Of a stretch of 64,000 nucleotides of DNA, positions 8,146 to 62,806 are shown in pieces; position 1 is the first letter of the stretch; every line of letters begins with the position of its first letter. The position numbers were made by a program, and so were the translations under genes. Source of the DNA: a virus (taxonomy: Duplodnaviria; Caudoviricetes); the IMG/VR virus record IMGVR_UViG_3300032226_000829, one strand, 5' to 3'. The notes below the pieces were generated by a model. That model searched no databases. It was not told where the DNA came from and saw only the letters and a list, made by a program, of their open reading frames with translations.

Positions 8146-9036
8146 ATGTCAAAATCCATTGAACGCAATATAGCATCAGTTAATAAAGGAGCAGACGATT
8201 TTACCACTGGTTTAAAACAGTTGGCACAATCTGCAGCAGATGCCATCAACAACAAGCATATTCAAGAGAAACCCATTGAGTTCATGGGCACTGCTGACAA
8301 TGGTATCTACGGCAAAGGACTACAGTGGACCGGAGTTGGACAAACCAAATATCTAGTGCTGCAGGCCACTCCAGACAGAATTTGGAGCAACGTCAACATA
8401 GATTTAAAACCAGAGAATCATTACAGCATTGACAACACATCAGTATTGAGTGCCAATGAGTTGGGCAAAACCGTGACCAAGAGCAATCTACGTCAGGTGG
8501 GCACATTGAATAATCTGGTGGTGTCAGGCAATTTAAACGTGAGTCAATTTGTTATTTTTGATTCGGGCATGAACAGACTGGGCGTGGGCACAGAAACTCC
8601 AAATGCCACATTATCAGTGGCCAGCAACACTGTGGAATTTATTGTGCAACCAGGTGTGTCTGCAGCAGACATAGGCACTCATACCAACAGTGGTCTTAAT
8701 ATTAAAACTGACAACACAGATAGAATTTCAATCACAGCCAATGGCCATATCACTTTGGGATTGAAAGGCAACACTGAAACTAAAATTAATATGTACGGCA
8801 GAGTGGGTATTGGTGTTACCAGTGTGGAATCAGATGTGAGTCTCAGCACTTCAGGAGCAGTGAAATTCCAAAACAAAAAATTTGAAATTGGCAACAGTGA
8901 GCCTTTGGCAGGATCTTACACTCAGGGTGATGTGGTATGGAACAGTGCACCAACTCCAGGCAACGTAATAGGTTGGGTGTGTGTGTTGACCGGCACTCCA
9001 GGACAGTGGAAATCATTCGGCGCAATAGCCAATTAA
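8146..9036 (+). CDS. Probable virion structural/fibre-related protein
   Basis: Late promoter; beta-rich RLGVGTETP / RVGIGVT repeats; C-terminal GDVVWNSAPTPGNVIGWVC seen in tailspike-type proteins. Confidence 0.6.
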   Translation: MSKSIERNIASVNKGADDFTTGLKQLAQSAADAINNKHIQEKPIEFMGTADNGIYGKGLQWTGVGQTKYLVLQATPDRIWSNVNIDLKPENHYSIDNTSVLSANELGKTVTKSNLRQVGTLNNLVVSGNLNVSQFVIFDSGMNRLGVGTETPNATLSVASNTVEFIVQPGVSAADIGTHTNSGLNIKTDNTDRISITANGHITLGLKGNTETKINMYGRVGIGVTSVESDVSLSTSGAVKFQNKKFEIGNSEPLAGSYTQGDVVWNSAPTPGNVIGWVCVLTGTPGQWKSFGAIAN

Positions 9037-9037
9037 T

Positions 9038-9484
9038 CTAAGTACTCATCACATCTTTGAGATATTTCTTATTCCAATATTTGTAATAATTCTTTGATCG
9101 CAAGAATTTTCTAGCAGACTCTAATTTGGATCTTTTTTGACACAGTATAAGATTGTACAAACCGTTGTTGGTTCTCACGTTTTTAATTTGAGTTTCTTCA
9201 TCCCAATGATCAGCTAGGAATACATATTCCTTATGAGTATCATTCAATTGATCGCACAACTCATACATGTCTTTCTTTTTCATGCGAAATTCTTTGAGAT
9301 ACAACAGCACGTCCAAGGTTTCCAACAGTGTTTGGTCTTTTTCAAATCTAATCTTTTTGCGTACTCTGTCTAGGATCTTATATCGGGCACGGACAGCATA
9401 AGGACACACTGCCAACCCTCCCAATTCTGATTGAACCATGCTGAGATGTTTGGTCCAGAGCTTGATGTGTGATTTCATAGACAT
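9038..9484 (-). CDS. Hypothetical protein (GGLAVCPYA motif)
   Basis: Divergent late-like TTAAATA 7 nt upstream; ORF-track frame trimmed to the ATG at 9484. Confidence 0.6.
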   Translation of the reverse strand: MSMKSHIKLWTKHLSMVQSELGGLAVCPYAVRARYKILDRVRKKIRFEKDQTLLETLDVLLYLKEFRMKKKDMYELCDQLNDTHKEYVFLADHWDEETQIKNVRTNNGLYNLILCQKRSKLESARKFLRSKNYYKYWNKKYLKDVMST

Positions 9485-9509
9485 ATATGTGTATTTAATA
9501 AATATAGAC

Positions 9510-10094
9510 ATGTTTGTAATAGGCAACGGTGAAAGTCGAAAGCACATAAACCTCGACAAAATTAATCAAACCAAGATAGGCTGCAATGCTGTGTTTAGAG
9601 ATTGGCAAATGGATCATCTAGTTTGTTGTGATCGCAAGATGGTGTTGGAAGCTCTGCATGAAACCAATCCAGACCTTACCAAAATACACACCAGAGCTGA
9701 ATATATCAGTATGGATTCAAGATTGAGTTGTGTGCCAGATTTGCCTTATGAGAGCAAACTGAGACAGGATCAACCCATTCATTGGGGCAGTGGTCCTTAT
9801 GCTGTGCTGTTGGCCATAAAACTTATTCATTCCGATGAAACCATCCACCTGTTGGGATTTGATCTATATGGCACCGGAGAGAGAATCAATAATGTGTACA
9901 AAGACAGTGTGGGTTATAAAAAATCGCATGAAAGAGCAGTGGATCCTAGATATTGGATACATCAGTTGCACCAGTTGTTTGAATTGCATCCAAACATAAA
10001 ATTTGTGATGCATGTGACAGAATCTTTCGTCAAACCCACTGAATGGCATCATACCAATTTAGAATATCAGAGCTTGACAATGTTGCGGCAATAA
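9510..10094 (+). CDS. MptE/DUF115/sialyltransferase-fold (GT29/GT42-like) protein
   Basis: VIGNGESR...IGCNAV...SGPYA...LLGFDL. Confidence 0.6.
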   Translation: MFVIGNGESRKHINLDKINQTKIGCNAVFRDWQMDHLVCCDRKMVLEALHETNPDLTKIHTRAEYISMDSRLSCVPDLPYESKLRQDQPIHWGSGPYAVLLAIKLIHSDETIHLLGFDLYGTGERINNVYKDSVGYKKSHERAVDPRYWIHQLHQLFELHPNIKFVMHVTESFVKPTEWHHTNLEYQSLTMLRQ

Positions 10095-10102
10095 TGTAAT
10101 AA
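10074..10102 (+). promoter_or_regulatory. Sigma70-type promoter of queD
   Basis: TTGACA-N17-TAATAA. Confidence 0.5.
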
Positions 10103-10113
10103 TATATGATGTT

Positions 10114-10178
10114 TGTAATTTATGACAATTACGCATAGAGGACTTGGTATAATCCCTCTTTAAAAATTCTTCTACCAT
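10114..10178 (+). ncRNA. Candidate preQ1-I-like riboswitch (variant H-type pseudoknot) in the queD 5' UTR
   Basis: P0 GTAATT/AATTAC; P1 AGAGG(10137-41)/CCTCT(10155-59) preceded by C10154; A-rich TTAAAAA linker; P2 TGGTA(10145-49)/TACCA(10173-77). Confidence 0.55.
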
Positions 10179-10198
10179 ATTAAACAATAGGAGATAAT

Positions 10199-10726
10199 AT
10201 GGTGAAATATTACAGTACAAAAACATACGGCAACGACCGAGGTTTGAGTTGTTGTTTTAGACAGTGGCAGAGCACTCATTCACACTGTTCTTTGCTGCAT
10301 GGTTACAGCATAGGTATTAAATTAATTTTTGAATCAGAGACTCTGGATGATCGCAATTGGGTCATGGACTTTGGTGGATTGAAAGCATTCAAAGAATGGA
10401 GTGAACACATGTTTGATCACACATTGGTGGTGGCTGAAAATGATCCACACCTAGACAAATTTAAAGCATTGGCAGCATTGGGATTAAATTCAGTGGGCGG
10501 CATCTGTGATCTACGCATAGTGCCAGCAGTGGGCTGTGAAAAATTCAGCGAGTTGGTTTACAATGAGATGAACAAGATATTGAAAACTTTTCAGTCAGGC
10601 AAGACTTACAAGTTGCCCAACGGTAAAGGATTTGATTGCAGGTATCCTGTGGGTCAAGGAGTCAAATTGCATTCAGTAGAAGTGTTTGAACACGCAGGGA
10701 ATTCGGCCATATATCAAGCACAATAA
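10199..10726 (+). CDS. queD: 6-carboxy-tetrahydropterin synthase / PTPS (QueD family)
   Basis: HCSLLHGYS, WVMDFGGLK, FDHT, GCEKFSE, VEVFEH; AGGAG RBS. Confidence 0.85.
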   Translation: MVKYYSTKTYGNDRGLSCCFRQWQSTHSHCSLLHGYSIGIKLIFESETLDDRNWVMDFGGLKAFKEWSEHMFDHTLVVAENDPHLDKFKALAALGLNSVGGICDLRIVPAVGCEKFSELVYNEMNKILKTFQSGKTYKLPNGKGFDCRYPVGQGVKLHSVEVFEHAGNSAIYQAQ

Positions 10727-10738
10727 ATACTCCTGACC

Positions 10739-11443
10739 ATGTCTAACAATTATGTGTTGTGTCTCAAACACGGCAACAAATACAGTGCTGAATATGTGAA
10801 TGTGTTAAAAAAAATGACACAACGCAATCTCACAGTGGCACATGAATTTGTGTGTTTCACTGAAGATCCCAAAGGCATAGATCCAGACATCAGAATATTG
10901 CCACTGCCTGCAGTTGTTCTCAAAGGATGGTGGTACAAAACCATGCTGTTCAATCCCCACTTGCCCATACAAGGCACCATGCTGTTCATTGATTTGGATG
11001 TGATTATTTTTAAAAACATAGACAAATTGTTCACCCACAAGCCTGGAGAATTCTGTGTGTGCAGAGACTTCAACAGATGTTTTCAACCCAACTGGCAGAA
11101 GATGAACAGTTCAGTGGTGCGTTGGAGCACAGGACAACACCCACAGATTTACAACAATTTTATCAAAGATCCACACACCATCAGCAAGAGATTTCATGGA
11201 GATCAAGACTGGTTGTTTGATCAGGTCAAAAAACACTATCAGTTCTGGCCTGATGAATGGATACAATCCTACAAGTGGGAGATGCGTGGCAATCCCAAAT
11301 TGGTGAGACAGAAGACAGGTTTCAAAAACTTCACATCACCTGGTGAGCCCAAAATTAAATCAGACACTGCTGTGGCTGTGTTTCACGGTGATCCCAATCC
11401 TAGAGAATGCGTGGATCCTTGGTGTCAAACCCATTGGAAATAG
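10739..11443 (+). CDS. GT-A glycosyltransferase (GT8-like)
   Basis: CLKHGNKYS, GWWYK, FIDLDVII (DxD), NSSV, GDQDW, VFHGDPNP. Confidence 0.8.
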   Translation: MSNNYVLCLKHGNKYSAEYVNVLKKMTQRNLTVAHEFVCFTEDPKGIDPDIRILPLPAVVLKGWWYKTMLFNPHLPIQGTMLFIDLDVIIFKNIDKLFTHKPGEFCVCRDFNRCFQPNWQKMNSSVVRWSTGQHPQIYNNFIKDPHTISKRFHGDQDWLFDQVKKHYQFWPDEWIQSYKWEMRGNPKLVRQKTGFKNFTSPGEPKIKSDTAVAVFHGDPNPRECVDPWCQTHWK

Positions 11444-11457
11444 CCATTGAATTCACA

Positions 11458-11486
11458 TTGACTGCAGTCAAAATATCGCATATACT
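11458..11486 (+). promoter_or_regulatory. Sigma70-type promoter of uvsE
   Basis: TTGACT-N17-TATACT, ATG 6 nt later. Confidence 0.65.
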
Positions 11487-11492
11487 AATAGT

Positions 11493-12545
11493 ATGATCAA
11501 AAGAATAGGTTTCTGCTGTCAATGGTTTCATCATGATAGAACTCTTAAAAAGAAACAACTGGAAGAATTAGAACGTCCTTACAATACCAGAGCTACCACT
11601 GTGCGTTGGTTGAACGAACACAAGGAACAAGCCGAAGAAAAACTGGCATTTGTGTTCAAACACAATATAGATGGCATCAAGAATTTAATATTAAAAGTGT
11701 CTGAACTGCCTGTGAGCAGAAGAATGTGCAGAATATCATCACCCATACTGCCAGTGGCCACTGAAAACACTTGGAGATACTATTGGGATAAACCAGAAAT
11801 TATAAAGTATTGCGAACAACATTTTGCTGAAGCAGGCGATTTGGCTCGCAAACACAATGTTAAAGTATCTTTCCATCCAGGACAATTCACGGTGTTGGCA
11901 TCGGATAATCCAGACATAGTGGAAAGAAGCATAGACGAATTTGAATATCATGTGCGTATGGCGAAAATGATGGGTTTTGGTAAGAAATGGCAGGATGGTT
12001 GTAAAATCAATGTACACATATCCGGTCGTCAAGGTCCAGAAGGTATTATAAAAGCATTGCCTAGATAAAGCCCTGAAGCTCGTAACTTAATCACCATTGA
12101 AAATGATGAAATGGGTTGGGGGTTGGATGCCACACTCAAATTAGAGAAACATGTGGCACTGGTGCTGGACATACATCATCACCTTATACGAGATGAAGAA
12201 TACATACGTCCCACTGATGACAGAGTCAAAAGAGTCATAGACAGTTGGAGAGGCGTGCGACCCACCATGCATTATTCTTATTTTAGAGATGAAGCTTTAA
12301 TGCCAGCATTTGATGCTGACACACAGCACATGATGCATAAAAATATGTTGCCCATGAAAGACTTAATAACGTTGGGCTGTCAAAAGGTAAAATTGAGATC
12401 TCACAGTGATCTGTTGCCCAATGCAGCACACAATGAATGGGCACTGTCATTTTTAGAATGCATGGACATTCAGGTGGAAGCAAAGGCCAAGAACTTGGCA
12501 GCTGAACAACTGCACAATCAGGCACAAGCTCTGGGTCTACTGTAA
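11493..12545 (+). pseudogene. uvsE: UV-damage endonuclease UvsE/UVDE interrupted by one in-frame TAA at 12066-12068
   Basis: RIGFCC, RMCRISS, SFHPGQF, INVH, then KALPR*SPEARNLITIENDE, LDIHHH, HYS, HSD, EAKAK all in one frame. Confidence 0.85.
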
Positions 12546-12556
12546 TAAATACTGCC

Positions 12557-13126
12557 ATGCAAGACATGAAGCAGTGGATCGAATTGTTCGAAACCAAACA
12601 AAAACGTGAAAAAACCCTAGTGTTGGAAACATTGCCTTATGGCATGGGTGATTTGGATCCTGTGCTGAGCCGTGCCAATGTGGAATATCATTATGGAGTA
12701 TTGAGCCGAGGTTATGTGAATCGATACAACACAGGAGAAGGTGATCCTGATTTCAATTATGGTGGTGCTAAATTGCACAATTTATTTTGGGCTCAATTGC
12801 AAGCACCCCGAGGCAGCAATCTTCCTCAAGGCACAATAAAAGAATTCATAAACGAACATCATAAAGATTATGACAGTTTTAAAGAAACGTTACTTTTGAC
12901 CACTATGAAACTGCAAGGATCTGGATGGGTGTACTTGTCTCGATCAGGAGAGATCAAAACCACTCCCAATCAAACATATCGAACTGATATTTTAATGCCC
13001 ATAGATATGTGGGAACATTCATTTATGGATTATGTGCCGGCAAAAGATGCCAAGAAACGCTACATTACAAATATTTTTAAAATAATCAATTGGTCTACAA
13101 TCAACGACCGTTTGAACACAAAATAA
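12557..13126 (+). CDS. sod: Fe/Mn superoxide dismutase
   Basis: LPY, EYHYG, LHNLFW, QGSGW, DMWEH; four metal ligands present. Confidence 0.88.
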   Translation: MQDMKQWIELFETKQKREKTLVLETLPYGMGDLDPVLSRANVEYHYGVLSRGYVNRYNTGEGDPDFNYGGAKLHNLFWAQLQAPRGSNLPQGTIKEFINEHHKDYDSFKETLLLTTMKLQGSGWVYLSRSGEIKTTPNQTYRTDILMPIDMWEHSFMDYVPAKDAKKRYITNIFKIINWSTINDRLNTK

Positions 13127-13828: not shown

Positions 13829-16800
13829 ATGGCCAAACAGAATATCAATATCGGAGTGGAAGGTAACGACGGTACCGGCGATAGTATTCGCGATGCGTTT
13901 AGGAAAGCGAATGAAAACTTCACGGAACTTTATGCAGTTTTTGGACAAGGTGGACAGATTGCTTTCACATCACTGAGTGACACTCCTGACACACTGGGCA
14001 TATTCAAACTGCCTATCAGCAACAGCACCGGCACAGAATTAGAAATGAGATCATTGTCTGGTGGTGTGGGTATCTCTGTGAGTTTAGCCACAGCAGGTCA
14101 GATTGTGATCAGCAACACCGGCAGTGAGTTGGTGGATGACCTTTCACCCAGTCTAGGAGGTCCGCTGAATGCCAATGGGTTTGCAGTGGGCAACGCAGAA
14201 GTCACCAGCCAAGCAGTGAGCAATTTTAATTCCACACATGGAACCAACATCACCATAGATGAATTATTAATCACCAAAGGCTACGCAGATCAAAGATATA
14301 TCAAACTGGGTGGAGGAGCATCAGGAGCAGCAGGTCAGATACGAGTGAGAAGTGAGCCTGTGGATGCCACAGCCTACACCAAGACCATCTCCAGCTACTC
14401 TGCAGGCAACGCAGTGGTCACAGCTCACGGTTTTGACAGCAGTGTGAATGGTTTAGAAGTAATTTACAACACCACTGGTTCTGCTGCTTCAGGATTGGTG
14501 AATGGCAGCACATATTACATCAGATATGTGAATGATAATCAATTAAGTTTTCACGCTAGTTTTGCTCAAGCCACCAACAATGATGACGTTACCAGAATAA
14601 AAATCACTGTGGCAGGCGGCACAGGCACACAGACATTCACTGATGCTGCTTATGATGACACACTGGCAGGATTCTTCCTCAGCGATGAGGCCATGCCAAG
14701 AGAATCTATTGTGAGACGTCAAGGAGACACCATGACTGGTGCTCTTTATCTGCATGACCATCCAGGAGATTTGTCAGGATTAGGCGCACCCAATGGTACA
14801 GATGATTTACAAGCAGCCACTAAATTTTATGTGGACAACACCAGTTATGCTTCAGAGTCCAATCTATTTGTGAGCACTAGAGGTGATGACAGAATGGATG
14901 GTGTGCCACCAGATAAGGTAGGCAGATCATTCAGTTACGCATACAAAAGTATCAATGCTGCTTGTGTAAAAGCTGAAGAAATCATGCTGGCCACTCCAGT
15001 AGAGTTAGGACCTTACACTCAGACCATCACTTATGATGATGGAGCCAGTGATTCCATAGTGGTCACAGAAGGTGTCACCAGCGGCAGCGGTTACAACAAT
15101 GTGAAATTGTTGATAGACGCCAACAGAACATTCATTATCAAACAGATGATAGGCTTTGTGAATGCTACCTATCCCAACTTTACCTATGATGAATTGATTT
15201 GTGAAAGAGATTTAGGATATATTCTGGATGGTATTGTGATTGATGTGTTGGCAGATCTCAATTCCAATGTTCGCAGCATTCAAGCAGGTATCAGATACTA
15301 CAGCAATGTGAGTGCTGCCAAGGCCATCAATCAGCAACTCACAGAAACACTGGCAGGTATCAACTATGCCAAAAGCATCACCAACACTGTGTTACAAAAT
15401 AATGCTGTGACCCCTATCTACAACGCTGGCTTCACTCAAACATTTGATGCGCCCAGCACTGTGAACTCCACAGGTAGATCATCAGTGGGAGCAAAATTTG
15501 ACATCATCACCAACATCATTCAGAATGGTATCAGCAGTGCTCCACCAGAAGTGGAAGGCAGCACATACACCATGACCATCAGCAATGGTGGATTTGGCAA
15601 TGTGGATCAAAATGATCCCAGCAATCAAGATTTGATTCCAGGCAAATTGATCCGAGGCAAGACCACTGGTGCCATAGGCAGAATTGTTTCTGTCGCAGCA
15701 GGCGGCGCAGCAGACACAGTGCAAGTGATATTGATTGAACCATTGGAGTTTTTAGTGGGTGAAGGTTTGGAATTTGCTTCACAATTCAAACGCAACAACA
15801 TCACCATCAGAGTGGAGAGCGGTACCTATCTGGAAGATTTCCCCATCAGAGTGCCAGATGGAGTCAGCATCAAAGGTGATGAATTTAGACGAGTGATCAT
15901 TCGACCCAAGAATAGAATTTCACAATCTCAGTTTGCCAACACATATTTCTACAGAGATTTAGTGATAGATGGTCTCACAGTGACCACCACCAACTTTGGA
16001 CGTCACTATCTAGTGAATCCCACTGCAGTGGTCAACACTGGTGTCAATTATACGAACGTGGGTGGCTATGACACTCAGGCCTTGACCATATTAAATGCCA
16101 AACCTGCCATACAGAATGCTGTGGTGAGTTATGTGAATTCATTGTTGAGTCCCAGCTCGTTGAATGCTGCCAATGAAGCAAGGAATCGCAGAGAGACTGG
16201 TACAATTGTGGATGCCATATTTTCAGATTTGAAGACTGGTGGCAATGAAAAAATATTGGAAGTGCAAGGCAACTTCTACAACTCAGGACTGATTGCTCAA
16301 GAGCAAGCAGGCATCAGCTACATTGCTACCTATATCAATGCCTCAGTGATTGCATCTGCTTCTGCAACCATTAAAAACATTGTCACCGCACAGATGGCTC
16401 GTGTGGTGTATGCATTCAATGGTTCATACAATCCTCCCAAACACAACAGAAACATGGATATGTTCCTCATGGGAGAAGCTACCATTTTGAGAAATATCAG
16501 TTCGCAAGGTCAAGGTGGATTCATGTGCGTGTTTGATCCTGCTTCACAAATTTTAAACAAATCACCTTACATTCAAACAGCTTCCAGTTTTTCTGCCAGC
16601 ATCAACACTCAAGCATTCCGAGGTGGTATGTTTGTGGATGGTTCATGCGGCAACATACCCATCAACATCACCAATGTGGTTAACCCATTCGAATTGGATG
16701 TGGACAGCAACGCTGGTCAAGGATTATTCATAAGAAAACCACTCACTCCCACTGCGTTCTATATTGATGGTGTGAGATATCAAGTGGATGCGATCAAAAA

Positions 16801-19800
16801 TTATGACGGACCAGCAGGCACAGCAACTTTATTGTTGAATGCCAGCAGCAATGGCGGATCAGGCTTTGTGATCACTTCACCCATTCCTTACACCACTATT
16901 CTGCAGACAGCAGGCAATAGATCCATGTTGGCCAATGACTTCACACAAGTGAACGATTTGGGTTATGGTCTTTTGGTTACCAATGGTGCATTGTCTGAAC
17001 AAGTGAGCACATTCACTTACTACTGTCATGCTGCCTACATGGCATTGAATGGAGGACAGATCAGATCTTTGAACGGCAGTAATGCCAATGGTGTGTATGG
17101 ATTAGTGGCTCAAGGTTCAGATCCTTTGGAAGTTCCAGATGATGTGGATCTGGTACGCAACATGGCACAAGTGGCCAAAGTGTATGATGATGGAGCCACC
17201 TATGATCACCCATTGCTGGCACTGAGCATTTATGTGTACGATTTAGAATATGTACCTCACAACAGATCTGAAATTGAAATAGATCACGATCCTTTGGATT
17301 CATCTGTGACTCTGGGCATACAAAGATATGAAGTGGCCAGTGTGGAATTGGTATCACCACCCATCACTGTGACAGGTCCTTCTGTCACACGTAATGGCAC
17401 AGTGTACAAATTAAATCTCAGCACTGCCGGCACTGACAATGCTTCCACCACAGGACTCAAAGCAGTGTTGTCTAATCAACAGAACGTGACCATCAGAGCC
17501 AGTCAATCGCATCAATTCAGCAACGTGGGCAATGTGTCTCCCACACGTCCCAGCACAGCATTGGTATTTTATGATGACACCACTGATGTAGTTTATAGAA
17601 CCACAGCATTCAACACCACCAACGCAGTGGGCACAGCATTGCCATCCAACAACGTGATTGCTTCTTTTGATACCACATTTGATTCTGTAAGATTACAAAT
17701 ACGACCAGCATCAGCTGTGTTAACTACCTACGCTGGCACAGGAACTACCATGGGAGCCACAGCAGGCGACGTGGTGTTGGCCATTGAACAAATCACTGAA
17801 GCTGTGGACATTACCAGATTGAACACAGGCAACATGAGCTTTGGTTGGGCAGGTAAAACACACAGAGTCACAGGCTATGTGGACCGAGGCACTTATGCCA
17901 CTGTGAGCATTGTGGATATCAGCAATATCAATACCTCAGGACCAGCAGCGGGAATTCAAGAAACATTGGTGCGTGGTGCTGGCACAGAAAACATTGTGTT
18001 GCGTTGCGGACTATTGGCTGGTGCCAATGCAGACATCACAGTGAAAATTTCCACCTGTAGAGCCACAGGACACGATTTCTTAGACATTGGCACAGGATCA
18101 TTCAACAACAGCAACTACCCCAATAATATTTTTGGTGATCCCACAGCATTGCCTGCACAAGAAAATGAAGTGGATGAACGAGGCAAAGGTAGAGTGTTCT
18201 ATGTGAGCACCGATCAAGACGGTGTGTTTAGAGTGGGTAGATTCTTCACAGTGGATCAAGGCACTGGATCAGTCACATTCTCAGCTTCAATTGCACTCAG
18301 CAACTTGGATGGATTAGGATTCAAACGAGGTGTGGTAGCATCAGAATTCAGCACAGACTCTGCTATGACAGACAATGCTTCGGATACCATACCCACAGAA
18401 TCAGCTGTGCGTGGTTACGTGGATAGAAGATTACATTACACACAAGGCAGTTCATTGGTGGGCAATCCTATTGGACCTGGTGCAATAGCCAGAGATGGAA
18501 CCACCAGTTTCACTGCTGATATCAGTGCAGGCGGATTCAAACTGATCACATTGGGCGCTCCCACTTCATCACAGGATGCTGCCAACAAAGCCTATGTGGA
18601 TCAAACATTGTATGCCAGTGATCAGGTAGAAAATTTAAGAAATGTGGACATTGCAGGGTTTGCTGCCAATCAGATATTGGTGTTCAATGGCAGACTTAGA
18701 ATATTCACCACACCAGAAACAGGCGGATTGTTTGCAGTGGGCAACACCATCACAGGCAGCAGCACAGGCACAGTGGCCACCATAGTGGATTATGAATCAG
18801 TGGTATTGCCGGGCGCATTGAATGCAAGACGCATAACTTTTGCATCAGTGTCAGGTCCTGGCTTCAGCACATTGGATTCTATCAGCACAGGTGGTGGGGT
18901 ATCAGCACAAATAATTGATGGTCCAATGAATGAATTGGCCAATGGAGTGATGAGTGGCAGTACAGATATTTCAATCACAGCCACAAGAAGCACTGCACAA
19001 ACAGATTTAAATTTACAAATAGTAGCTGGCAGCATCATCAATGCAGATGTGAACGCAGCCGCAGCCATTCAGCAGAGCAAGTTGGCCATGACAGCTGCCA
19101 CCACCAGAGTGAACGCCACAGGCATCAGTCAGGCAGATCTTGGATTGGCCAGCTTTGATTCCAGCACTTTCACAGTGACCAACGGCTGGGTGCAGATTGA
19201 TTCAGGTGATTTGGCCATCAGCAAGATTGAGAACATGGCCACTGACACAGTGATAGGTCGCAGTGCAGCTGGCACAGGAGCTCCCAGCGCCATAGCATTC
19301 AGCACAGTGATCAGTGATGGTGGAGGATTAGAAGATGGAGATTTTGCCACAGAATTACTGGCTGCATTGGATCCAGGAGAAGCACTGATCAAAACAGGTG
19401 CCACTTCATATGCTCGAACCAATGTGAGCACCTCAGGCGAAGTGAACAGTATTATTAAATCAGATGCCACAGGCATTGTGGATGTGGCAGCATTGAAGTT
19501 GGATGGACAACTGTTGATAGACAGCAACACCGGCACCAACACTTCGCTGTTCTACACCAGAGGCAGCGTTAATTTTTTACAAGCAGTGGGCAATACCACT
19601 GCCAACACCACACTCACATTCACAGGTAGAAAATTTCAATTTGGTGGTAGCACAGTGCCCAATTCACCCACTGCTGATGCACTGCAGAGCGCGGCATTGA
19701 ATGAAGGCCGAGGCATAGCCACACCTCACTTGTTCACAAAATTCATTGAAACAGATTCAGTGGAATCAGGCGGCACAGGTATAGCACTGGGAGCAGGTGG

Positions 19801-20386
19801 CAGCACATTGGCTGGCGCAGGCAAGATCAGTATTGTGTTGGCAGGAGCAGTGCCATTCATATTTGCAGGTGATGCAGACGATTCCACTATCACCACACCA
19901 GGAGTTTATCCTGACGCAACTGACACATACACCATTGGTAATGCTTCGGCCAGATACAAAACAATTTTTGCTGAAGTGTTCCACGGCACAGCAACCAACG
20001 CATTGTACGCAGATTTGGCAGAGAAATATTTGGCAGACCAGGAATATGATTCGGGCACTGTGTTGCAGTTTGGTGGTGACAAAGAAGTTACCATCACCAC
20101 AGAAGCCAACACCAACAAGATAGCAGGTGTGGTGACCACAGCACCAGCATTTTTGATGAATGATCAATTGAATGAAGAGAACACAGTGGCAGTGGCACTG
20201 CAGGGTCGTGTGCCATGCAAGGTGATTGGAAAAATTGCCAAAGGTGACATGCTGGTGGCCAGTGCAATGTCAGGTGTGGCCTGTGCAGCTGAAGGTGAAA
20301 TTAAAATAGGCACAGTGATTGGTAAATCGCTGGAGCATTATGATTCAGATCAAGTGGGTGTGATTGAGATTGCGATAGGTAGATAA
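13829..20386 (+). CDS. Giant tail/baseplate fibre-type structural protein (2185 aa)
   Basis: N-terminus KQNINIG..GNDGTGDSIRDAFRKANENFTELY resembles T4 gp9/gp10; DAANKAYVD / AATKFYVD fibre repeats; C-terminal ADLAEKY...GVVT..PAFLMN...VALQGRVPCKV chaperone-like domain. Confidence 0.8.
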   Translation: MAKQNINIGVEGNDGTGDSIRDAFRKANENFTELYAVFGQGGQIAFTSLSDTPDTLGIFKLPISNSTGTELEMRSLSGGVGISVSLATAGQIVISNTGSELVDDLSPSLGGPLNANGFAVGNAEVTSQAVSNFNSTHGTNITIDELLITKGYADQRYIKLGGGASGAAGQIRVRSEPVDATAYTKTISSYSAGNAVVTAHGFDSSVNGLEVIYNTTGSAASGLVNGSTYYIRYVNDNQLSFHASFAQATNNDDVTRIKITVAGGTGTQTFTDAAYDDTLAGFFLSDEAMPRESIVRRQGDTMTGALYLHDHPGDLSGLGAPNGTDDLQAATKFYVDNTSYASESNLFVSTRGDDRMDGVPPDKVGRSFSYAYKSINAACVKAEEIMLATPVELGPYTQTITYDDGASDSIVVTEGVTSGSGYNNVKLLIDANRTFIIKQMIGFVNATYPNFTYDELICERDLGYILDGIVIDVLADLNSNVRSIQAGIRYYSNVSAAKAINQQLTETLAGINYAKSITNTVLQNNAVTPIYNAGFTQTFDAPSTVNSTGRSSVGAKFDIITNIIQNGISSAPPEVEGSTYTMTISNGGFGNVDQNDPSNQDLIPGKLIRGKTTGAIGRIVSVAAGGAADTVQVILIEPLEFLVGEGLEFASQFKRNNITIRVESGTYLEDFPIRVPDGVSIKGDEFRRVIIRPKNRISQSQFANTYFYRDLVIDGLTVTTTNFGRHYLVNPTAVVNTGVNYTNVGGYDTQALTILNAKPAIQNAVVSYVNSLLSPSSLNAANEARNRRETGTIVDAIFSDLKTGGNEKILEVQGNFYNSGLIAQEQAGISYIATYINASVIASASATIKNIVTAQMARVVYAFNGSYNPPKHNRNMDMFLMGEATILRNISSQGQGGFMCVFDPASQILNKSPYIQTASSFSASINTQAFRGGMFVDGSCGNIPINITNVVNPFELDVDSNAGQGLFIRKPLTPTAFYIDGVRYQVDAIKNYDGPAGTATLLLNASSNGGSGFVITSPIPYTTILQTAGNRSMLANDFTQVNDLGYGLLVTNGALSEQVSTFTYYCHAAYMALNGGQIRSLNGSNANGVYGLVAQGSDPLEVPDDVDLVRNMAQVAKVYDDGATYDHPLLALSIYVYDLEYVPHNRSEIEIDHDPLDSSVTLGIQRYEVASVELVSPPITVTGPSVTRNGTVYKLNLSTAGTDNASTTGLKAVLSNQQNVTIRASQSHQFSNVGNVSPTRPSTALVFYDDTTDVVYRTTAFNTTNAVGTALPSNNVIASFDTTFDSVRLQIRPASAVLTTYAGTGTTMGATAGDVVLAIEQITEAVDITRLNTGNMSFGWAGKTHRVTGYVDRGTYATVSIVDISNINTSGPAAGIQETLVRGAGTENIVLRCGLLAGANADITVKISTCRATGHDFLDIGTGSFNNSNYPNNIFGDPTALPAQENEVDERGKGRVFYVSTDQDGVFRVGRFFTVDQGTGSVTFSASIALSNLDGLGFKRGVVASEFSTDSAMTDNASDTIPTESAVRGYVDRRLHYTQGSSLVGNPIGPGAIARDGTTSFTADISAGGFKLITLGAPTSSQDAANKAYVDQTLYASDQVENLRNVDIAGFAANQILVFNGRLRIFTTPETGGLFAVGNTITGSSTGTVATIVDYESVVLPGALNARRITFASVSGPGFSTLDSISTGGGVSAQIIDGPMNELANGVMSGSTDISITATRSTAQTDLNLQIVAGSIINADVNAAAAIQQSKLAMTAATTRVNATGISQADLGLASFDSSTFTVTNGWVQIDSGDLAISKIENMATDTVIGRSAAGTGAPSAIAFSTVISDGGGLEDGDFATELLAALDPGEALIKTGATSYARTNVSTSGEVNSIIKSDATGIVDVAALKLDGQLLIDSNTGTNTSLFYTRGSVNFLQAVGNTTANTTLTFTGRKFQFGGSTVPNSPTADALQSAALNEGRGIATPHLFTKFIETDSVESGGTGIALGAGGSTLAGAGKISIVLAGAVPFIFAGDADDSTITTPGVYPDATDTYTIGNASARYKTIFAEVFHGTATNALYADLAEKYLADQEYDSGTVLQFGGDKEVTITTEANTNKIAGVVTTAPAFLMNDQLNEENTVAVALQGRVPCKVIGKIAKGDMLVASAMSGVACAAEGEIKIGTVIGKSLEHYDSDQVGVIEIAIGR

Positions 20387-52756: not shown

Positions 52757-54220
52757 ATGCACACTGACTTAACAGCACAGCAAAAAGACTATGCAGTGTT
52801 TCTGCCGGCGTTGAGCAGTTTCTATGCAAGAGATTTGGGCAAGGCCAGACATGAGAAGGATTATATCCTGCCTCACAGAATTCCGGCTGCTTTTAATCAT
52901 GGCATAGAAGGCATGAATTATCTTGTGCCCACCAACACATATTTTCATTACAGATGGCATTTGTACAGTGCAGGTCATGCTGACTTGAACATGGACAAAT
53001 TTAGTGCCAGAGATGACATCATAAGAAATCGAGATAGAAAAACCAGTTTTGTACTGGGTGATTCAGGAGGGTTTCAGATTGGTAAAGGAGTATGGGAAGG
53101 CAATTGGAAAGATCCCACTTGTCCTCGAGCCAAGAAGAAGCGAGAACAGGTGCTCACTTGGATGGATGCCAACATGGATTATGGTATGATATTGGATATT
53201 CCAGCATGGGTTTCACGTTCTCCAGAAGGTGCCAAAGCCAGCAATATCAACTCCTATCAGGAAGCAGTGGATGGCACAAGAATCAATAATGATTACTTCA
53301 TGAAGACTAGAACAGGTGCTTGTAAGTTTTTAAATGTGCTGCAAGGTGAAAACTTTCAACAAGCAGATGATTGGTATCAGCAGATGAAAGATTACTGCGA
53401 TCCTAAAAAATATCCCACAACTCACTTTAATGGTTGGGCAATGGGTGGTCAGAACATGTGTGATGTGCATCTTATATTGAAAAGATTAGTGGCATTAAGA
53501 TTTGATGGTTTATTAGAAAAAGGCATTCATGATTGGATGCATTTTTTAGGCACATCCAAACTGGAATGGGCAGTGCTATTGACAGACATCCAAAGAGCAG
53601 TAAGAAAATATCACAATCCAAACTTTACTGTGTCATTTGATTGTGCTTCACCTTTCTTAGCATCAGCCAATGGACAAATTTACACAGAAGTGGATGTCAG
53701 AGACAAACAAAAATGGTCATATAGAATGGCTGCCAGCATAGATGATAAAAAATATGCCGGTGACACCAGAGCATTTAGAGATGCTGTGTTACAAGAAAAG
53801 ATATTTGACAATTTTCAAGACAGTCCTATCAGTAAAAGATTACAGTTGAAAGATGTCACTTGTTATGCTCCAGGAGATAAAAACAAAGTGGGCGGTGATC
53901 CCAAAACATCTTGGGATTCATTCAGTTATACCTTACAAATGGCACACAATGTTTGGACACACATCAATGCTGTGCAAGAAGCCAACAGACAGTATGATGC
54001 AGGATTAACTCCACGCATGTTGGTGGAAGAAAAGTTTGATAAAGTGGCATTCAAAGACATAGTGGAAGCAATATTTGCCACAGACAACAGAGACACAGCA
54101 GAAGCAGTGATTGAGGAATACAGCAGATTTTGGATGAGTATCATAGGTACCAGAGGCGCCACAGGCAAAAAAACAGTGAATGCTTCAACACAGTTTTCTA
54201 ACTTATTTGAGGAGGTATAA
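52757..54220 (+). CDS. dpdA: TGT-fold base-exchange enzyme, DpdA-like DNA 7-deazaguanine transglycosylase
   Basis: GDSGGFQ, MILDIP, VLQG, AMGG, HFLG, SFDC, AHN: the TGT catalytic and substrate motifs. Confidence 0.75.
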   Translation: MHTDLTAQQKDYAVFLPALSSFYARDLGKARHEKDYILPHRIPAAFNHGIEGMNYLVPTNTYFHYRWHLYSAGHADLNMDKFSARDDIIRNRDRKTSFVLGDSGGFQIGKGVWEGNWKDPTCPRAKKKREQVLTWMDANMDYGMILDIPAWVSRSPEGAKASNINSYQEAVDGTRINNDYFMKTRTGACKFLNVLQGENFQQADDWYQQMKDYCDPKKYPTTHFNGWAMGGQNMCDVHLILKRLVALRFDGLLEKGIHDWMHFLGTSKLEWAVLLTDIQRAVRKYHNPNFTVSFDCASPFLASANGQIYTEVDVRDKQKWSYRMAASIDDKKYAGDTRAFRDAVLQEKIFDNFQDSPISKRLQLKDVTCYAPGDKNKVGGDPKTSWDSFSYTLQMAHNVWTHINAVQEANRQYDAGLTPRMLVEEKFDKVAFKDIVEAIFATDNRDTAEAVIEEYSRFWMSIIGTRGATGKKTVNASTQFSNLFEEV

Positions 54221-56759: not shown

Positions 56760-57161
56760 ATGAGCAATTTAAAATCTAAAATTTGGGTTACATTTCGCAG
56801 AGAAGGCATACACAAGTATCCTGCAGCATTAACAGATCCAAAATTAAAAACTGGTGATGAATATGATGTGAGTTTTTTGGGTTATCCTCACAGACACATA
56901 TTTCATTTTAAGGTGGCTATTGAAGTGTTTCATGATGATAGAGACATTGAGTTTATACAGTTTAAAAGATGGTTGGAAAACTTGTATGGCAAAGGCACAT
57001 TAGAGTTGGATTATAAAAGTTGTGAAATGATTGGCGCTGATCTTTATCAACAGATCAATTCAAGATATCCCAATAGAGAAGTCACAATAGACGTGAGCGA
57101 AGATGGTGAGAACGGTGCCACAATGACTTGGGCAGCCAATTCATCCATAACAATCAACTAG
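56760..57161 (+). CDS. dpdL: QueD-paralogous T-fold protein, DpdL-like (CDG decarboxylase)
   Basis: EGIHKYP, LGYPHRHIF (LxxxHRHxF in place of QueD CxxxHGH), DRDIEF, SCE, VSEDGENG. Confidence 0.7.
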   Translation: MSNLKSKIWVTFRREGIHKYPAALTDPKLKTGDEYDVSFLGYPHRHIFHFKVAIEVFHDDRDIEFIQFKRWLENLYGKGTLELDYKSCEMIGADLYQQINSRYPNREVTIDVSEDGENGATMTWAANSSITIN

Positions 57162-58623: not shown

Positions 58624-59079
58624 ATGGAAACAGCCAATAAAAATTATTTTACCATGATCCAGATGCGTGCAGCTCTGCTGAATATACATCAGCAATTGAC
58701 TGAACAACAATGGCAACCTCAGGTAATATTAGGATTAAACAGAGGAGGATGTATTCCTGCTATCTATTTGTCACACAAATTGGATGTTCCTCATCATGTG
58801 TTAAATGTAAGTTTACGAGATCATGCTGATACTCCTGATTTACACACATTGGAAAAAGTATATGCTTGGCAAAAAAGAGTATTGATAGTGGATGATATCA
58901 ATGATACAGGTGCCACATTTAATTATATTATGAATAACTTTGGCAAACCAGAAAGATTAAAGTTTGCTGTGATATTGCACAACACAGTGAGCACCTACAA
59001 AGATATAGATTACAAAGGTTATGAAATCAACAAACTGGAAGATCCACGTTGGATAGTGTTTCCTTGGGAGCAATGGTAG
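58624..59079 (+). CDS. Type I purine phosphoribosyltransferase (Gpt-like)
   Basis: LGLNRGGCIPA, VLIVDDINDTGAT, WIVFPWE. Confidence 0.9.
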   Translation: METANKNYFTMIQMRAALLNIHQQLTEQQWQPQVILGLNRGGCIPAIYLSHKLDVPHHVLNVSLRDHADTPDLHTLEKVYAWQKRVLIVDDINDTGATFNYIMNNFGKPERLKFAVILHNTVSTYKDIDYKGYEINKLEDPRWIVFPWEQW

Positions 59080-59080
59080 T

Positions 59081-59458
59081 ATGGAAAAAATTGACACTTT
59101 GAATCAAGCTCAAAAAGAAGGCAGAGCTCCTTGGACCAAAGTGATATATGATTTGAAAGATTGTGTGTGGTATGAGGATGGATATCCTGTGACTGAAGGA
59201 CATGCATTGCTGGTACCCAAACAAGCCAGTCAAAATATGATTGTGAAATGTTTTGAATTAGCATTAAAAATTGGCAATGAAAATATTGCCAAAGGTTTGA
59301 TTGACGGCTACAACATAGGTATCAACATGGGCGAGGCAGCAGGTCAAACTGTTCCTTATCCGCATGTTCATTTGATTCCAAGACGCAAGGGTGACATGGA
59401 AGATCCTAGGGGTGGGGTACGGCATGTGATCCCTCACAAAGGAAATTATAAAAAATGA
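59081..59458 (+). CDS. HIT-family nucleotide hydrolase
   Basis: PVTEGHALLVPK, GEAAGQTVPYPHVHLIPR. Confidence 0.9.
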   Translation: MEKIDTLNQAQKEGRAPWTKVIYDLKDCVWYEDGYPVTEGHALLVPKQASQNMIVKCFELALKIGNENIAKGLIDGYNIGINMGEAAGQTVPYPHVHLIPRRKGDMEDPRGGVRHVIPHKGNYKK

Positions 59459-60282: not shown

Positions 60283-60872
60283 TCATTGGTGATAGTTTTG
60301 CTTGTGAGTGGCCCAATGGCCTTGCTGGATGGCCCGCTCAGTTGGCTCAACAACATGATGTGACCAATTTGGCTCAGGCAGGTGTGGGCGAATATAAAAT
60401 ATTAAGACAACTGCTAAACTTTACCAAAGAAAATCCTTGGTGGCAGCATGACTATGATTGTGTGATTGTGTGTCATACCAGTCCCAGCAGAGTACACACT
60501 CCCGTTCATCCCATACACAAAGAAGGACTGCACAAAGATTGTGATCTCATATGGAATGACATTGAATCTCGCAACAGTTGGTTCAATAAAAGTTTAGACA
60601 CTGCTAAAAATTGGTTCAAGTATCACTATGATGATCAATACCAAAAAGACATCTACAGATTGATACGCAGAGATATCAACAGAAAACTGGAGCAAATCAC
60701 CAGTTTACACATAGATAATTTTGGTATCAGTAACCATTTTGTTGAGGAACAGAATCTGTTGGACTTCAGTATGATCTGGCCTAACTACAGAGGAGAAATT
60801 AATCATTACAATGATGAAGGAAACCAAATTGTTTTGGCACAAATCATTGACAAACTGGAACAAATCTGTTAA
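60255..60872 (+). CDS. SGNH/GDSL-like protein
   Basis: IIGDSF, NLAQAG, NHYNDEGN. Confidence 0.65.
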   Translation: MAKKSKKILIIGDSFACEWPNGLAGWPAQLAQQHDVTNLAQAGVGEYKILRQLLNFTKENPWWQHDYDCVIVCHTSPSRVHTPVHPIHKEGLHKDCDLIWNDIESRNSWFNKSLDTAKNWFKYHYDDQYQKDIYRLIRRDINRKLEQITSLHIDNFGISNHFVEEQNLLDFSMIWPNYRGEINHYNDEGNQIVLAQIIDKLEQIC

Positions 60873-60895
60873 AATAGTACAATATAAGGAGTATA

Positions 60896-61582
60896 ATGAA
60901 AGTATCAGAAAAGATTAAACAAAGACTGATTGAGGCTGGTGTGAATTATCATGCTGATGATAATATTTCAGCCTATGTTGAAAAAGATGAACTGGTTCTA
61001 TTGGAAAAAGAATTAACAGAATCATTCAAATCTGTTTTAAACAGTCTTGTGATTGATACTGAAAATGATCCTAATAGTAAAAACACAGCACACAGACTGG
61101 CCAAGATGTATTTGAAAGAATTAATGAGTGGAAGATATGAATCCAGACCTGATGCCACAGCATTTCCCAATGTGGGAGAAAATGCCTACACAGGCATGTT
61201 GGTGGTGCGTAGTGAATTAAAATCAGTGTGCAGTCATCATCATCAACCAGTGAGCGGAGTAGCATACATTGGAATCATACCCAATGGCAAAGTGATAGGA
61301 TTGAGCAAATACACAAGAATAGCACAATGGTGTGCTAGAAGAGGCACACTGCAAGAAGCACTGTGCAATAACATTGCCAATGAGATTGAAATGGCCACTG
61401 GAGCCAAAGATCTAGGAGTGTACATACAAGCCACACATGGCTGTTGTGAAAACAGAGGCATAATGGCACACAGTTCATTGACTCAGACCACTGTGTTAAA
61501 AGGTGCTTTCAAAGATGATGCTGGCACTAAAAAAGAATTTATGGATAATATTAACCTGCAACAACAATTTGCACCAAGATAG
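60896..61582 (+). CDS. folE: GTP cyclohydrolase I
   Basis: TAHRLAKMY, SVCSHHH, GLSKYTR, LQE, HGCCENRG; promoter TTGACA-N17-TAAAAT at 60847. Confidence 0.95.
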   Translation: MKVSEKIKQRLIEAGVNYHADDNISAYVEKDELVLLEKELTESFKSVLNSLVIDTENDPNSKNTAHRLAKMYLKELMSGRYESRPDATAFPNVGENAYTGMLVVRSELKSVCSHHHQPVSGVAYIGIIPNGKVIGLSKYTRIAQWCARRGTLQEALCNNIANEIEMATGAKDLGVYIQATHGCCENRGIMAHSSLTQTTVLKGAFKDDAGTKKEFMDNINLQQQFAPR

Positions 61583-61795: not shown

Positions 61796-61946
61796 AGACA
61801 CCAGTAAAGGTCATTTCTATGTGTCACTAATCAAGAGTGCATTTAGAATCATTGCAGGCATTAGTTTAATATTTGGTAACTTTATTACTGCTGGATTTTT
61901 ATTCATACTGGCAGAATTATTAGGAGTGGTAGAGGAATTAGTATAA
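61779..61946 (+). CDS. 55-aa membrane protein (not in ORF track)
   Basis: MNIQPKDTSKGHFYVSLIKSAFRIIAG...AELLGVVEELV; TAATG overlap with queE. Confidence 0.65.
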   Translation: MNIQPKDTSKGHFYVSLIKSAFRIIAGISLIFGNFITAGFLFILAELLGVVEELV

Positions 61947-62806
61947 TGAGCAAAATTAAAATAGCAGAATTATTTTACAGCATACAAGGAGAAGGCAGGT
62001 ACATGGGTGTGCCTTCAGTGTTCTTGAGAACATTTGGCTGCAACTTTACTTGTGCTGGCTTTGGTTTGCCTCGAGGCATGCGTAGTGATGAGAATGACAA
62101 AGTATTTGAACAGCACAAACAATTTCCTTTTAAAAGCTATGAAGAATTGCCATTGGTGAACACAGGCTGTGATTCGTATGCATCTTGGGATCCTCGATTC
62201 AAAGATTTATCTCCCATGCTGACATCAGATGCTATTGTGGAAAGAACAATGGAAATATTGCCACACAAACAATGGGTGGATGAACATTTTATATTCACAG
62301 GCGGTGAACCATTGCTGGGTTGGCAACGTGCTTATCCAGATGTATTGGAACATGCAAAGATGCAGGCTTTAAAAGAGATCACTTTTGAAACCAATGGCAC
62401 ACAAAAACTACACAAAGATTTTAAAGATTATTTGACTCAATGGAATCAGAAGAATGGTAGAACTAAAGAATCCATATCATTCTCTGTGAGTGCAAAATTA
62501 AGTGTGAGCGGAGAAAAACGTGAAGAAGCTATACTGCCTGAAGTGGTGGCAGAATATGGAGATGTAGGGCATGTGTATTTGAAATTTGTGGTGGCCACCA
62601 AGGAAGATGCTGATGAGGCATTCCAAGCAGTGGCTGATTATCGTAAAGCAGGATTCTCGGGATCAGTTTATTTGATGCCTGTGGGTGGAGTAGAAAGTGT
62701 CTATCATATGAACAATAGAACAGTGGCAGAACTGGCAATGAAGATGGGATATAGATACAGTGATAGATTACAAGTGCCATTGTTTAAAAACGCATGGGGT
62801 ACATAA
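61946..62806 (+). CDS. queE: 7-carboxy-7-deazaguanine synthase (radical SAM)
   Basis: ELFYSIQGEG..MGVPSVFLRTFGCNFTC...CDS, FTGGEP, ETNGT, SVSAK, RLQ. Confidence 0.9.
   Translation: MSKIKIAELFYSIQGEGRYMGVPSVFLRTFGCNFTCAGFGLPRGMRSDENDKVFEQHKQFPFKSYEELPLVNTGCDSYASWDPRFKDLSPMLTSDAIVERTMEILPHKQWVDEHFIFTGGEPLLGWQRAYPDVLEHAKMQALKEITFETNGTQKLHKDFKDYLTQWNQKNGRTKESISFSVSAKLSVSGEKREEAILPEVVAEYGDVGHVYLKFVVATKEDADEAFQAVADYRKAGFSGSVYLMPVGGVESVYHMNNRTVAELAMKMGYRYSDRLQVPLFKNAWGT

Follow-up and report, generated by a model that had tools for sequence, protein, structure and literature searches.

The DNA analysed here (hereafter the window, 64,000 nucleotides of IMG/VR virus record IMGVR_UViG_3300032226_000829, Duplodnaviria; Caudoviricetes) carries all of its long open reading frames (ORFs) on the + strand, including those for a T4-type DNA polymerase, tail-fibre and baseplate-like proteins and an AAA protease. 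Since the records nearest to it are IMG/VR contigs from lake metagenomes, we assign the window to a large uncultured freshwater phage. Our subject is the leader of its queD gene, which a first-pass annotation, made from the letters of the sequence, had described as a variant preQ1-I-like riboswitch pseudoknot. Our analysis supports a conserved pseudoknot at this place and suggests that it controls access to the queD start codon. The features of the locus are as follows.

10074-10103, + strand: sigma70-type promoter, with TTGACA at 10074, 18 nt, and TG-n-AATAAT at 10098-10103 (scores 11/12 with the TG extension)
10114-10133, + strand: P0 hairpin, GUAAUU/AAUUAC plus a U-G extension, specific to the window's clade (read from the sequence)
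10137-10141, + strand: P1 5' strand, AGAGG, paired with CCUCU at 10155-10159
10142-10144, + strand: L1, ACU, whose C and U are invariant in the family and whose first nucleotide varies (123 aptamers)
10145-10152, + strand: P2 5' strand, UGGUA (10145-10149), then U10150 opposite C10172, A10151 and A10152 (P2 covariation)
10145-10153, + strand: TGGTATAAT, a perfect extended -10 look-alike in the P1 loop, probably incidental
10153-10154, + strand: junction dinucleotide UC before the P1 3' strand, with C10154 as candidate ligand-pairing base
10155-10159, + strand: P1 3' strand, CCUCU (P1 pairing and covariation)
10160-10172, + strand: L3, UUAAAAAUUCUUC; family consensus W-U-A-N-A-H-A-Y-U-C-U-G-C (per-position counts, 123 aptamers)
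10173-10177, + strand: P2 3' strand, UACCA, which also lies in the sequestor helix (covariation, folds)
10170-10206, + strand: sequestor hairpin, in which 10170-10172 and 10174-10182 pair with 10195-10206 (minimum free energy (MFE) and centroid folds)
10199-10726, + strand: queD, encoding a phage-type PTPS/QueD protein with the motif CxxxHGY (Pfam PTPS, PHROG QueD-like), the regulated gene

The intergenic stretch 10095-10198 holds the promoter, P0, P1, P2 and the Shine-Dalgarno sequence (SD) AGGAG (10189-10193), which lies 11 nt after P2 and is followed by the ATG at 10199. Both promoter and SD are of the E. coli type. The promoter is kept in clade relatives (L001-L013); its predicted transcription start, at ~10110, would give a leader of ~89 nt. 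Within this leader we distinguish the aptamer (10137-10177) from the expression platform (10170-10206), the RNA measuring ~45 nt. Clade relatives hold the P0 hairpin with different stems (UGCGAU/AUUGCA, UGUGAU/AUUGCA), while P0 is missing in other clades, where the promoter abuts P1. The first-pass annotation had placed P0, P1, C10154, a UUAAAAA tract (10160-10166), P2 and AGGAG correctly, and its distinction between the structured queD leader and short leaders elsewhere is borne out by folE (60896), which has a promoter ~20 nt before its ATG.

Related leaders were gathered with a search by back-translated QueD protein, which gave 430 IMG/VR stretches, 80 of which were kept. The same leader architecture was found at 71 of the 77 loci with readable upstream sequence, and its register is rigid: a 5-bp P1, an L1 of N-C-U plus 0-6 nt, a P2 strand of 5-7 nt, U-C-A-H-C, the P1 3' strand, the 13 nt of the L3 consensus and, immediately after, the P2 3' strand. 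P1 consists of standard pairs in 99.5% of cells and includes two covarying pairs (39 leaders); its forms in the family are AGAGG/CCUCU, AGCGG/CCGCU, UGCGG/CCGCA and AGUGG/CCACU. All P2 pairs change on both sides, and in an ungapped alignment the five core pairs show 4-5 pair types each. The P2 covariation score was 0.68, compared with 0.23 in shuffles (0/500), and slid registers gave at most 0.27. MAFFT alignments put P2 out of register and were rejected; ungapped 37-nt and model-based alignments were used instead. A covariance model built from this first set matched once in the window and once in each of 99 new loci, which came from the core-pattern matches described below, and P2 covariation was reproduced on 76 distinct independent sequences (0.50 versus 0.17 in shuffles, 0/500).

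Unpaired positions are similarly constrained. Some 15 unpaired nucleotides are the same in all 123 unique aptamers, even though the proteins encoded downstream share as little as ~35% identity. L3 positions 3, 5, 7, 9, 10, 11 and 13 do not vary, and L1 reads ACU in 49 aptamers, UCU in 41 and CCU in 33. The C just 5' of the P1 3' strand, which the first-pass annotation took for the ligand-pairing position, is present in 123 of 123, preceded by U (90), C (21) or A (12). The departures from preQ1-I that it had noted in the window (an A in place of the U after P1, and a longer L3) hold family-wide, the nucleotide after P1 being variable and L3 long throughout. It had also named covariation among the queD leaders of related phages as a check; both P1 and P2 covary, over more than 120 distinct sequences, and we regard the pseudoknot structure as real with near certainty.

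P2 may be longer than its core. Position 2 of the 5-nt junction and position 12 of the 13-nt tail are C/G in 121 aptamers and A/U in two, never mixed (CG 75 and AU 1 in the independent set). The A/U double change is limited to the window clade (A10151/U10171), and the neighbouring A and U are invariant. As the swap from C/G to A/U arose only once in evolution, this pattern is no more than suggestive of a P2 that continues past a conserved U.C mismatch by two pairs, A10151-U10171 and A10152-U10170. The extension would leave a 2-nt junction (U10153, C10154) and a 10-nt L3, closer to the appearance of preQ1-I.

The motif is widespread among phage sequences. A pattern for the conserved core matched at least 120 IMG/VR stretches, with all listed matches being the motif. 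Of 196 ORFs downstream of motif copies, 193 belong to one phage-type QueD family. More than 120 variants are represented, from lake and some marine viromes. Each phage genome has one copy, and no second copies were found before folE, queE or other genes. At two exceptional loci the motif stands before a different ORF, encoding a 113-aa protein (L239 6409-6750, - strand; its His-rich motif was read by eye as cupin-like) or a 243-aa protein (L251 4432-5163, + strand). A marine variant (L111/L139, metagenome-assembled genome (MAG) 'Rickettsiales bacterium MED657') has a 4-bp P1 (GAGG/CCUC) and the P2 GACUU/AAGUC before a queD-like gene, and the motif family is therefore also found outside lakes.

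When the core pattern was run against 185,579 bacterial and archaeal species, it gave 83 matches, about the chance expectation, and only six of these had both P1 and P2. In each of the six the match precedes queD, on a MAG contig of 3.8-33 kb (below 9 kb in four cases) that is presumably binned phage DNA. The motif was not found in any clearly bacterial chromosome in this search, in which exact pattern matches only are visible. Among cultured phages, blastn with three leaders gave chance matches only, and the covariance model had no match in the queD loci of Iggy, BUCT-ZZ01, Motura, PhiXhv-15 and Pan1, five phages whose queD genes lie in tight operons without a leader. One candidate from Brevibacillus phage Jimmer1 (L284 1490-1540) was rejected: it has 38 nt that are 84% identical to the window's P2-to-P2 segment, lacks a P1 partner and sits in a divergent promoter region (TTGGTATAAT). 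We found no published description of the motif in the literature.

Metatranscriptomes bear on whether the leader is transcribed whole. Part of the stretch is represented in 24 lake or marine runs. Contigs from eight of these, all from lakes, start at 10125, 10128, 10134, 10134, 10155, 10165, 10169 and 10202, and all run into queD. Half of them (those starting at 10125-10134) begin upstream of P1 and include all of it. No contig covers 10077-10124, though one run also covers 9926-10076. This pattern is consistent with transcription from about the predicted 10110 and speaks against read-through or carried-over DNA.

The look-alike TGGTATAAT raises a different possibility for the window clade, namely that it is a functional promoter with a start at ~10160, and that the pseudoknot is a relic that is never transcribed whole. 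Its form as a perfect extended -10, the three of eight RNA contigs that start at 10155-10169 and the chance blastn match to the Brevibacillus phage promoter region, which shows the string to be promoter-like, speak for this idea. Yet the motif shows no enrichment in the window (6 occurrences against 4.0 expected), has no -35 at 17 nt and is missing from other clades, while four of the eight contigs start upstream of it and contain P1. A relic would not keep P1, P2, the A/U double change and the sequestor intact, as the clade does, in covariation with codon 2; moreover, a transcript from 10160 would stay permanently sequestered. We consider a relic very improbable, and TGGTATAAT is probably a by-product of the P2 and junction sequences.

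How might the pseudoknot act on translation? The MFE fold of the window leader contains P1 and the sequestor hairpin, with the AUG (10199-10201) buried and the SD in a 12-nt loop. The 5' strand of the sequestor is the P2 3' strand, and the two helices overlap at 10170-10177; P2 and the sequestor are therefore mutually exclusive. The sequestor is present in the MFE folds of five clades, and other clades offer alternative pairings of UGYCAUC/GAUGGCA, UGUCAUUGUU/AACAAUGGCA and AAGUCAU/AUGACUU; in one clade the pairing is between GCCUAUG and CAUAGGAG, across the SD. When each anti-strand was paired with the ribosome-binding region of the same leader, the duplex had a mean of -8.4 kcal/mol over 103 distinct leaders, compared with -4.5 kcal/mol for shuffled anti-strands, and the native duplex was the stronger in 99 of the 103 (p ~3e-18). 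The AUG lies within this duplex in 63 leaders, the SD in 39.

The start region, P2 3' strand and P2 5' strand covary as a set: AUGGUR/UACCAU/UGGUA in the window clade, AUGGCA/UGYCAU/GGCA in most leaders and AUGACUU/AAGUCAU/GACUU in another clade. In effect, then, the P2 loop strand appears to mimic the start region. In 116 of 120 leaders the platform hairpin exceeds the bare P2 duplex in stability (mean -9.0 versus -5.6 kcal/mol), so the default state should be closed. Since the P2 3' strand is the anti-start strand, a stabilised pseudoknot should free the start site. No terminator-like site, and hence no terminator or attenuator, was found at 9000-12000. Taken together, these data make a two-state translational switch highly likely, and the modelled pairings point to one that is probably ON rather than OFF.

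A switch of this kind could work without sensing a metabolite, either as a protein-binding operator (compare the T4 gene 32 pseudoknot) or as a ligand-free kinetic or thermal device. In the kinetic variant, the pseudoknot would form first during transcription and permit a burst of translation, after which the mRNA would refold into the sequestor. Conservation of both alternative helices agrees with such a device, as do the transcription of P2 before the start region and the thermodynamic advantage of the sequestor, and operators made of pseudoknots or start-codon hairpins are known in T4-like phages. The ~15 invariant unpaired nucleotides, kept across divergent phages, are typical of a ligand pocket and exceed what a timer needs. 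In addition, no partner protein gene was found at every motif locus, though downstream genes vary between loci, and the element resembles a known small-molecule aptamer. We therefore rate a switch without a metabolite as a lesser, though still credible, possibility.

The product of the regulated gene belongs to a recognisable phage family. The window QueD scores 52 bits against Pfam PTPS, above the Pfam cut-off, and 35.8 against NCBIfam QueD, under the cut-off of 89. It carries CxxxHGY, where the QueD signature is CxxxHGH (PMC10516641), and the HGY variant is also present in the QueD of phage Iggy. The protein shares 43-49% identity with the QueD proteins encoded by deazaguanine clusters in cultured phages, Iggy included. 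We also observed that this phage QueD family is without the first zinc histidine, FRQW replacing an AAHR-like motif (window 10199-10726; L289 1492-1950). As CxxxHGH is the canonical zinc-binding motif, the active site of a widespread phage QueD type thus differs from that of bacterial QueD.

Other candidate genes of the 7-deazaguanine pathway lie near the far end of the window.

56760-57161, + strand: 133-aa protein with the DpdL signature LxxxHRHxF (LGYPHRHIF), assigned by the motif alone, with no Pfam match
58624-59079, + strand: phosphoribosyltransferase (tblastn with proteins of the G002 island, Pfam-assigned there)
59081-59458, + strand: HIT hydrolase (tblastn with proteins of the G002 island, Pfam-assigned there)
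60896-61582, + strand: folE, GTP cyclohydrolase I, with a promoter at 60847-60875 and a short leader (70% identical to G002 FolE)
61946-62806, + strand: QueE-like radical SAM enzyme (50% identical to its G002 homologue)

DpdL is a candidate decarboxylase of 7-carboxy-7-deazaguanine (CDG) and is recognised by the LxxxHRHxF signature (PMC10516641). For the QueE-like family, a homologue from L192 (53% identical to the copy in G002) had only QueE models as its best NCBIfam matches, all under their cut-offs. Neither QueC nor an Iggy-type DpdA was found in the window. Two relatives that CheckV rates 99-100% complete likewise have FolE and a QueE-like protein, with no QueC above the Pfam cut-off, no tRNA-guanine transglycosylase (TGT) and no Iggy DpdA, in searches for TGT and DpdA that distant DpdA3-type enzymes would escape. 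A candidate DpdA-like ORF at 52757-54220 has no Pfam match. A structured leader is seen only at queD, whose product commits dihydroneopterin triphosphate to the pathway.

Two characterised phages give these genes context. The QueC-QueD-FolE-DpdA cluster of phage Iggy is described as making dPreQ0 in DNA (PMC10484667), and Cellulophaga phage phiST, which has FolE, QueD, QueE and DpdL and no QueC, carries 7-deazaguanine in its DNA (PMC10516641). The window's gene set resembles that of phiST, and by analogy the phage may make a CDG- or 7-deazaguanine-type DNA base. Given FolE, a QueE-like enzyme and a DpdL-signature protein without QueC, preQ1 is an unlikely product as judged from gene content, and the first-pass annotation was reasonable in guessing that this phage may not make it.

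The phosphoribosyltransferase was also seen between queD and queE in G002, a complete 344-kb relative (L290, G002:C1:156000-172000, 10895-11473), and in Synechococcus phage BUCT-ZZ01 (L285 695-1156), where it is annotated as a xanthine-guanine phosphoribosyltransferase. It hints at conversion of a deazaguanine base to a nucleotide, instead of or besides a transglycosylase.

Several further features lie downstream of queD. A UV-damage endonuclease, UvdE, is split between two ORFs (11493-12068, 191 aa; 12111-12545, 144 aa) that match positions 26-156 and 193-258 of the Pfam profile, while related phages have one ORF of ~348 aa; the split may reflect a frameshift or stop, pseudogene formation or an assembly error. 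Directly after it comes an Fe/Mn superoxide dismutase (12557-13126; Pfam Sod_Fe_N and Sod_Fe_C), and related phages have the same two genes downstream of queD. A short way past the queD block lies a single 2185-aa ORF (13829-20386).

The likeness to preQ1-I is substantial. Like members of that class (RF00522; B. subtilis queC, T. tengcongensis, E. coli), the queD motif folds as a minimal pseudoknot of the H type, in which P1 has 5 bp and P2 forms between the P1 loop and the tail, and it lies in the 5' leader of a gene from the 7-deazaguanine pathway. The B. subtilis aptamer has P1 AGAGG/CCUCU, then AUAAAAAA (PMC10639078); the first-pass annotation had given this stem correctly, and P1 of the window is identical to it. 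Before the P1 3' strand, preQ1-I has UC (type I) or AC (types II/III) (PMC11625349), and the queD motif likewise has its invariant C, preceded mostly by U (UC at 10153-10154 in the window), although its CC variant is no preQ1-I form. The 3' tail starts W-U-A-A-A in both (UUAAAAA in the window), with invariant A's in L3 and a UA.A.A tail.

These shared traits could mean that the element is an ordinary divergent preQ1-I riboswitch, through which preQ1 or preQ0 would repress queD by feedback inhibition. The profile searches argue otherwise. At gathering thresholds, Rfam 15 had no match in the window or 20 relatives, and at E<=10 positions 9950-10350 of the window and the L080 leader gave only chance snoRNA or miRNA matches, with no preQ1-I, -II or -III. 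Thus the preQ1-I model search that the first-pass annotation had envisaged came back negative, RF00522 matching neither the window nor its relatives; of the description as a preQ1-I-like pseudoknot, the H-type topology in a phage queD leader stands, and membership in preQ1-I is not recognisable. Differences in detail agree with this outcome. Whereas preQ1-I has a conserved U or UU directly after the P1 5' strand (PMC11625349), the nucleotide there varies in the queD motif (A in the window) and is followed by an invariant C-U. P2 has 5-7 bp plus a probable U.C mismatch and two pairs, compared with ~4 bp, and an extra invariant YUCUGC (UCUUC in the window clade) stands before the P2 3' strand; both are foreign to preQ1-I. 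The preQ1-I strand holds the SD or favours a terminator (OFF), while the queD-motif P2 3' strand is an anti-start/anti-SD strand that does not itself touch the SD, which predicts ON. The queD motif has, unlike preQ1-I, been found only in uncultured phages. Finally, with no QueC in the window or the two complete relatives, preQ0 or preQ1 is not the expected product. We consider an ordinary preQ1-I riboswitch improbable.

The reading we favour, with moderate confidence, is that of a ligand-driven ON riboswitch on the phage queD leader. Without stabilisation, the stronger sequestor hairpin would bury AUG 10199 and leave queD untranslated. A small ligand would bind at the P1/P2 junction, contacting C10154, the C-U of L1, the U.C mismatch and the A's of L3, and would thereby lock P2, free the start site and turn translation ON. 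QueD would then commit dihydroneopterin triphosphate to 7-deazaguanine synthesis, probably via QueE and the DpdL-signature protein, to a CDG- or 7-deazaguanine-type DNA base. A guanine-like face on the ligand is favoured by the invariant C and the likeness to preQ1-I; the ligand is presumably a substrate-side pterin or purine, or a 7-deazaguanine. For ON logic at a committed step, a feed-forward signal (the pterin substrate or a guanine nucleotide) is no less fitting than a 7-deazaguanine product. Retuning of the ligand to another deazapurine, as the first-pass annotation had proposed, is possible.

Some of our data weigh against this reading. The double change behind the proposed P2 extension happened once. 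Three RNA contigs start within the aptamer (10155-10169), and the contigs are low-depth assemblies from which a 5' end cannot be fixed; TGGTATAAT could be a second promoter in the window clade. ON logic, which we read from pairing potential, is unusual for the leader of a biosynthetic gene. Lastly, our searches found no cultured phage or bacterium with the motif.

More tentatively still, the ligand-driven ON riboswitch may represent a phage-only class, derived from or convergent on the preQ1-I fold, whose pocket was remodelled to accept something else in place of preQ1 (dihydroneopterin triphosphate or some other pterin, CDG or 7-deazaguanine, for example) and which switches ON the committed enzyme of a guanine-replacement pathway. 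Riboswitches are reported to be rare in phages, and known ones are copies of bacterial classes, e.g. glutamine riboswitches (PMC9004378). By contrast, the queD motif is abundant, strongly covarying, not in Rfam and not found on the clearly bacterial chromosomes searched. Binding of a small molecule would make it a new riboswitch class, with its origin or diversification in viruses, and a natural case in which the smallest known aptamer fold has gone over from OFF to ON control, possibly with a re-tuned ligand. A phage-only riboswitch class would be the first of its kind, would provide the first preQ1-like pseudoknot that acts ON, and would show phage control of the flux of GTP into 7-deazaguanine DNA modification, an anti-restriction system.

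Known leaders offer parallels for the proposed switching. The add riboswitch of Vibrio vulnificus is a translational ON riboswitch with a sequestor/anti-sequestor platform, and the queD leader resembles it in that the aptamer shares a strand with a start-masking helix, so that ligand (adenine, in the case of add) releases the start. The two differ in architecture, with a three-way junction in add and a pseudoknot in the queD leader, and in the role of the gene: the gene regulated by add degrades or exports the ligand, while queD encodes a committed biosynthetic step. Leader control in T4-like phages offers a second parallel, through the pseudoknot operator of the gene 32 mRNA and the start-codon hairpins of genes e and soc. 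As in those leaders, a pseudoknot or hairpin in a T4-like phage would control access to the start codon. However, the T4 elements are read by protein or bypassed by an internal late promoter and are without the consensus of the queD motif, whose many invariant loop nucleotides point instead to a small ligand.

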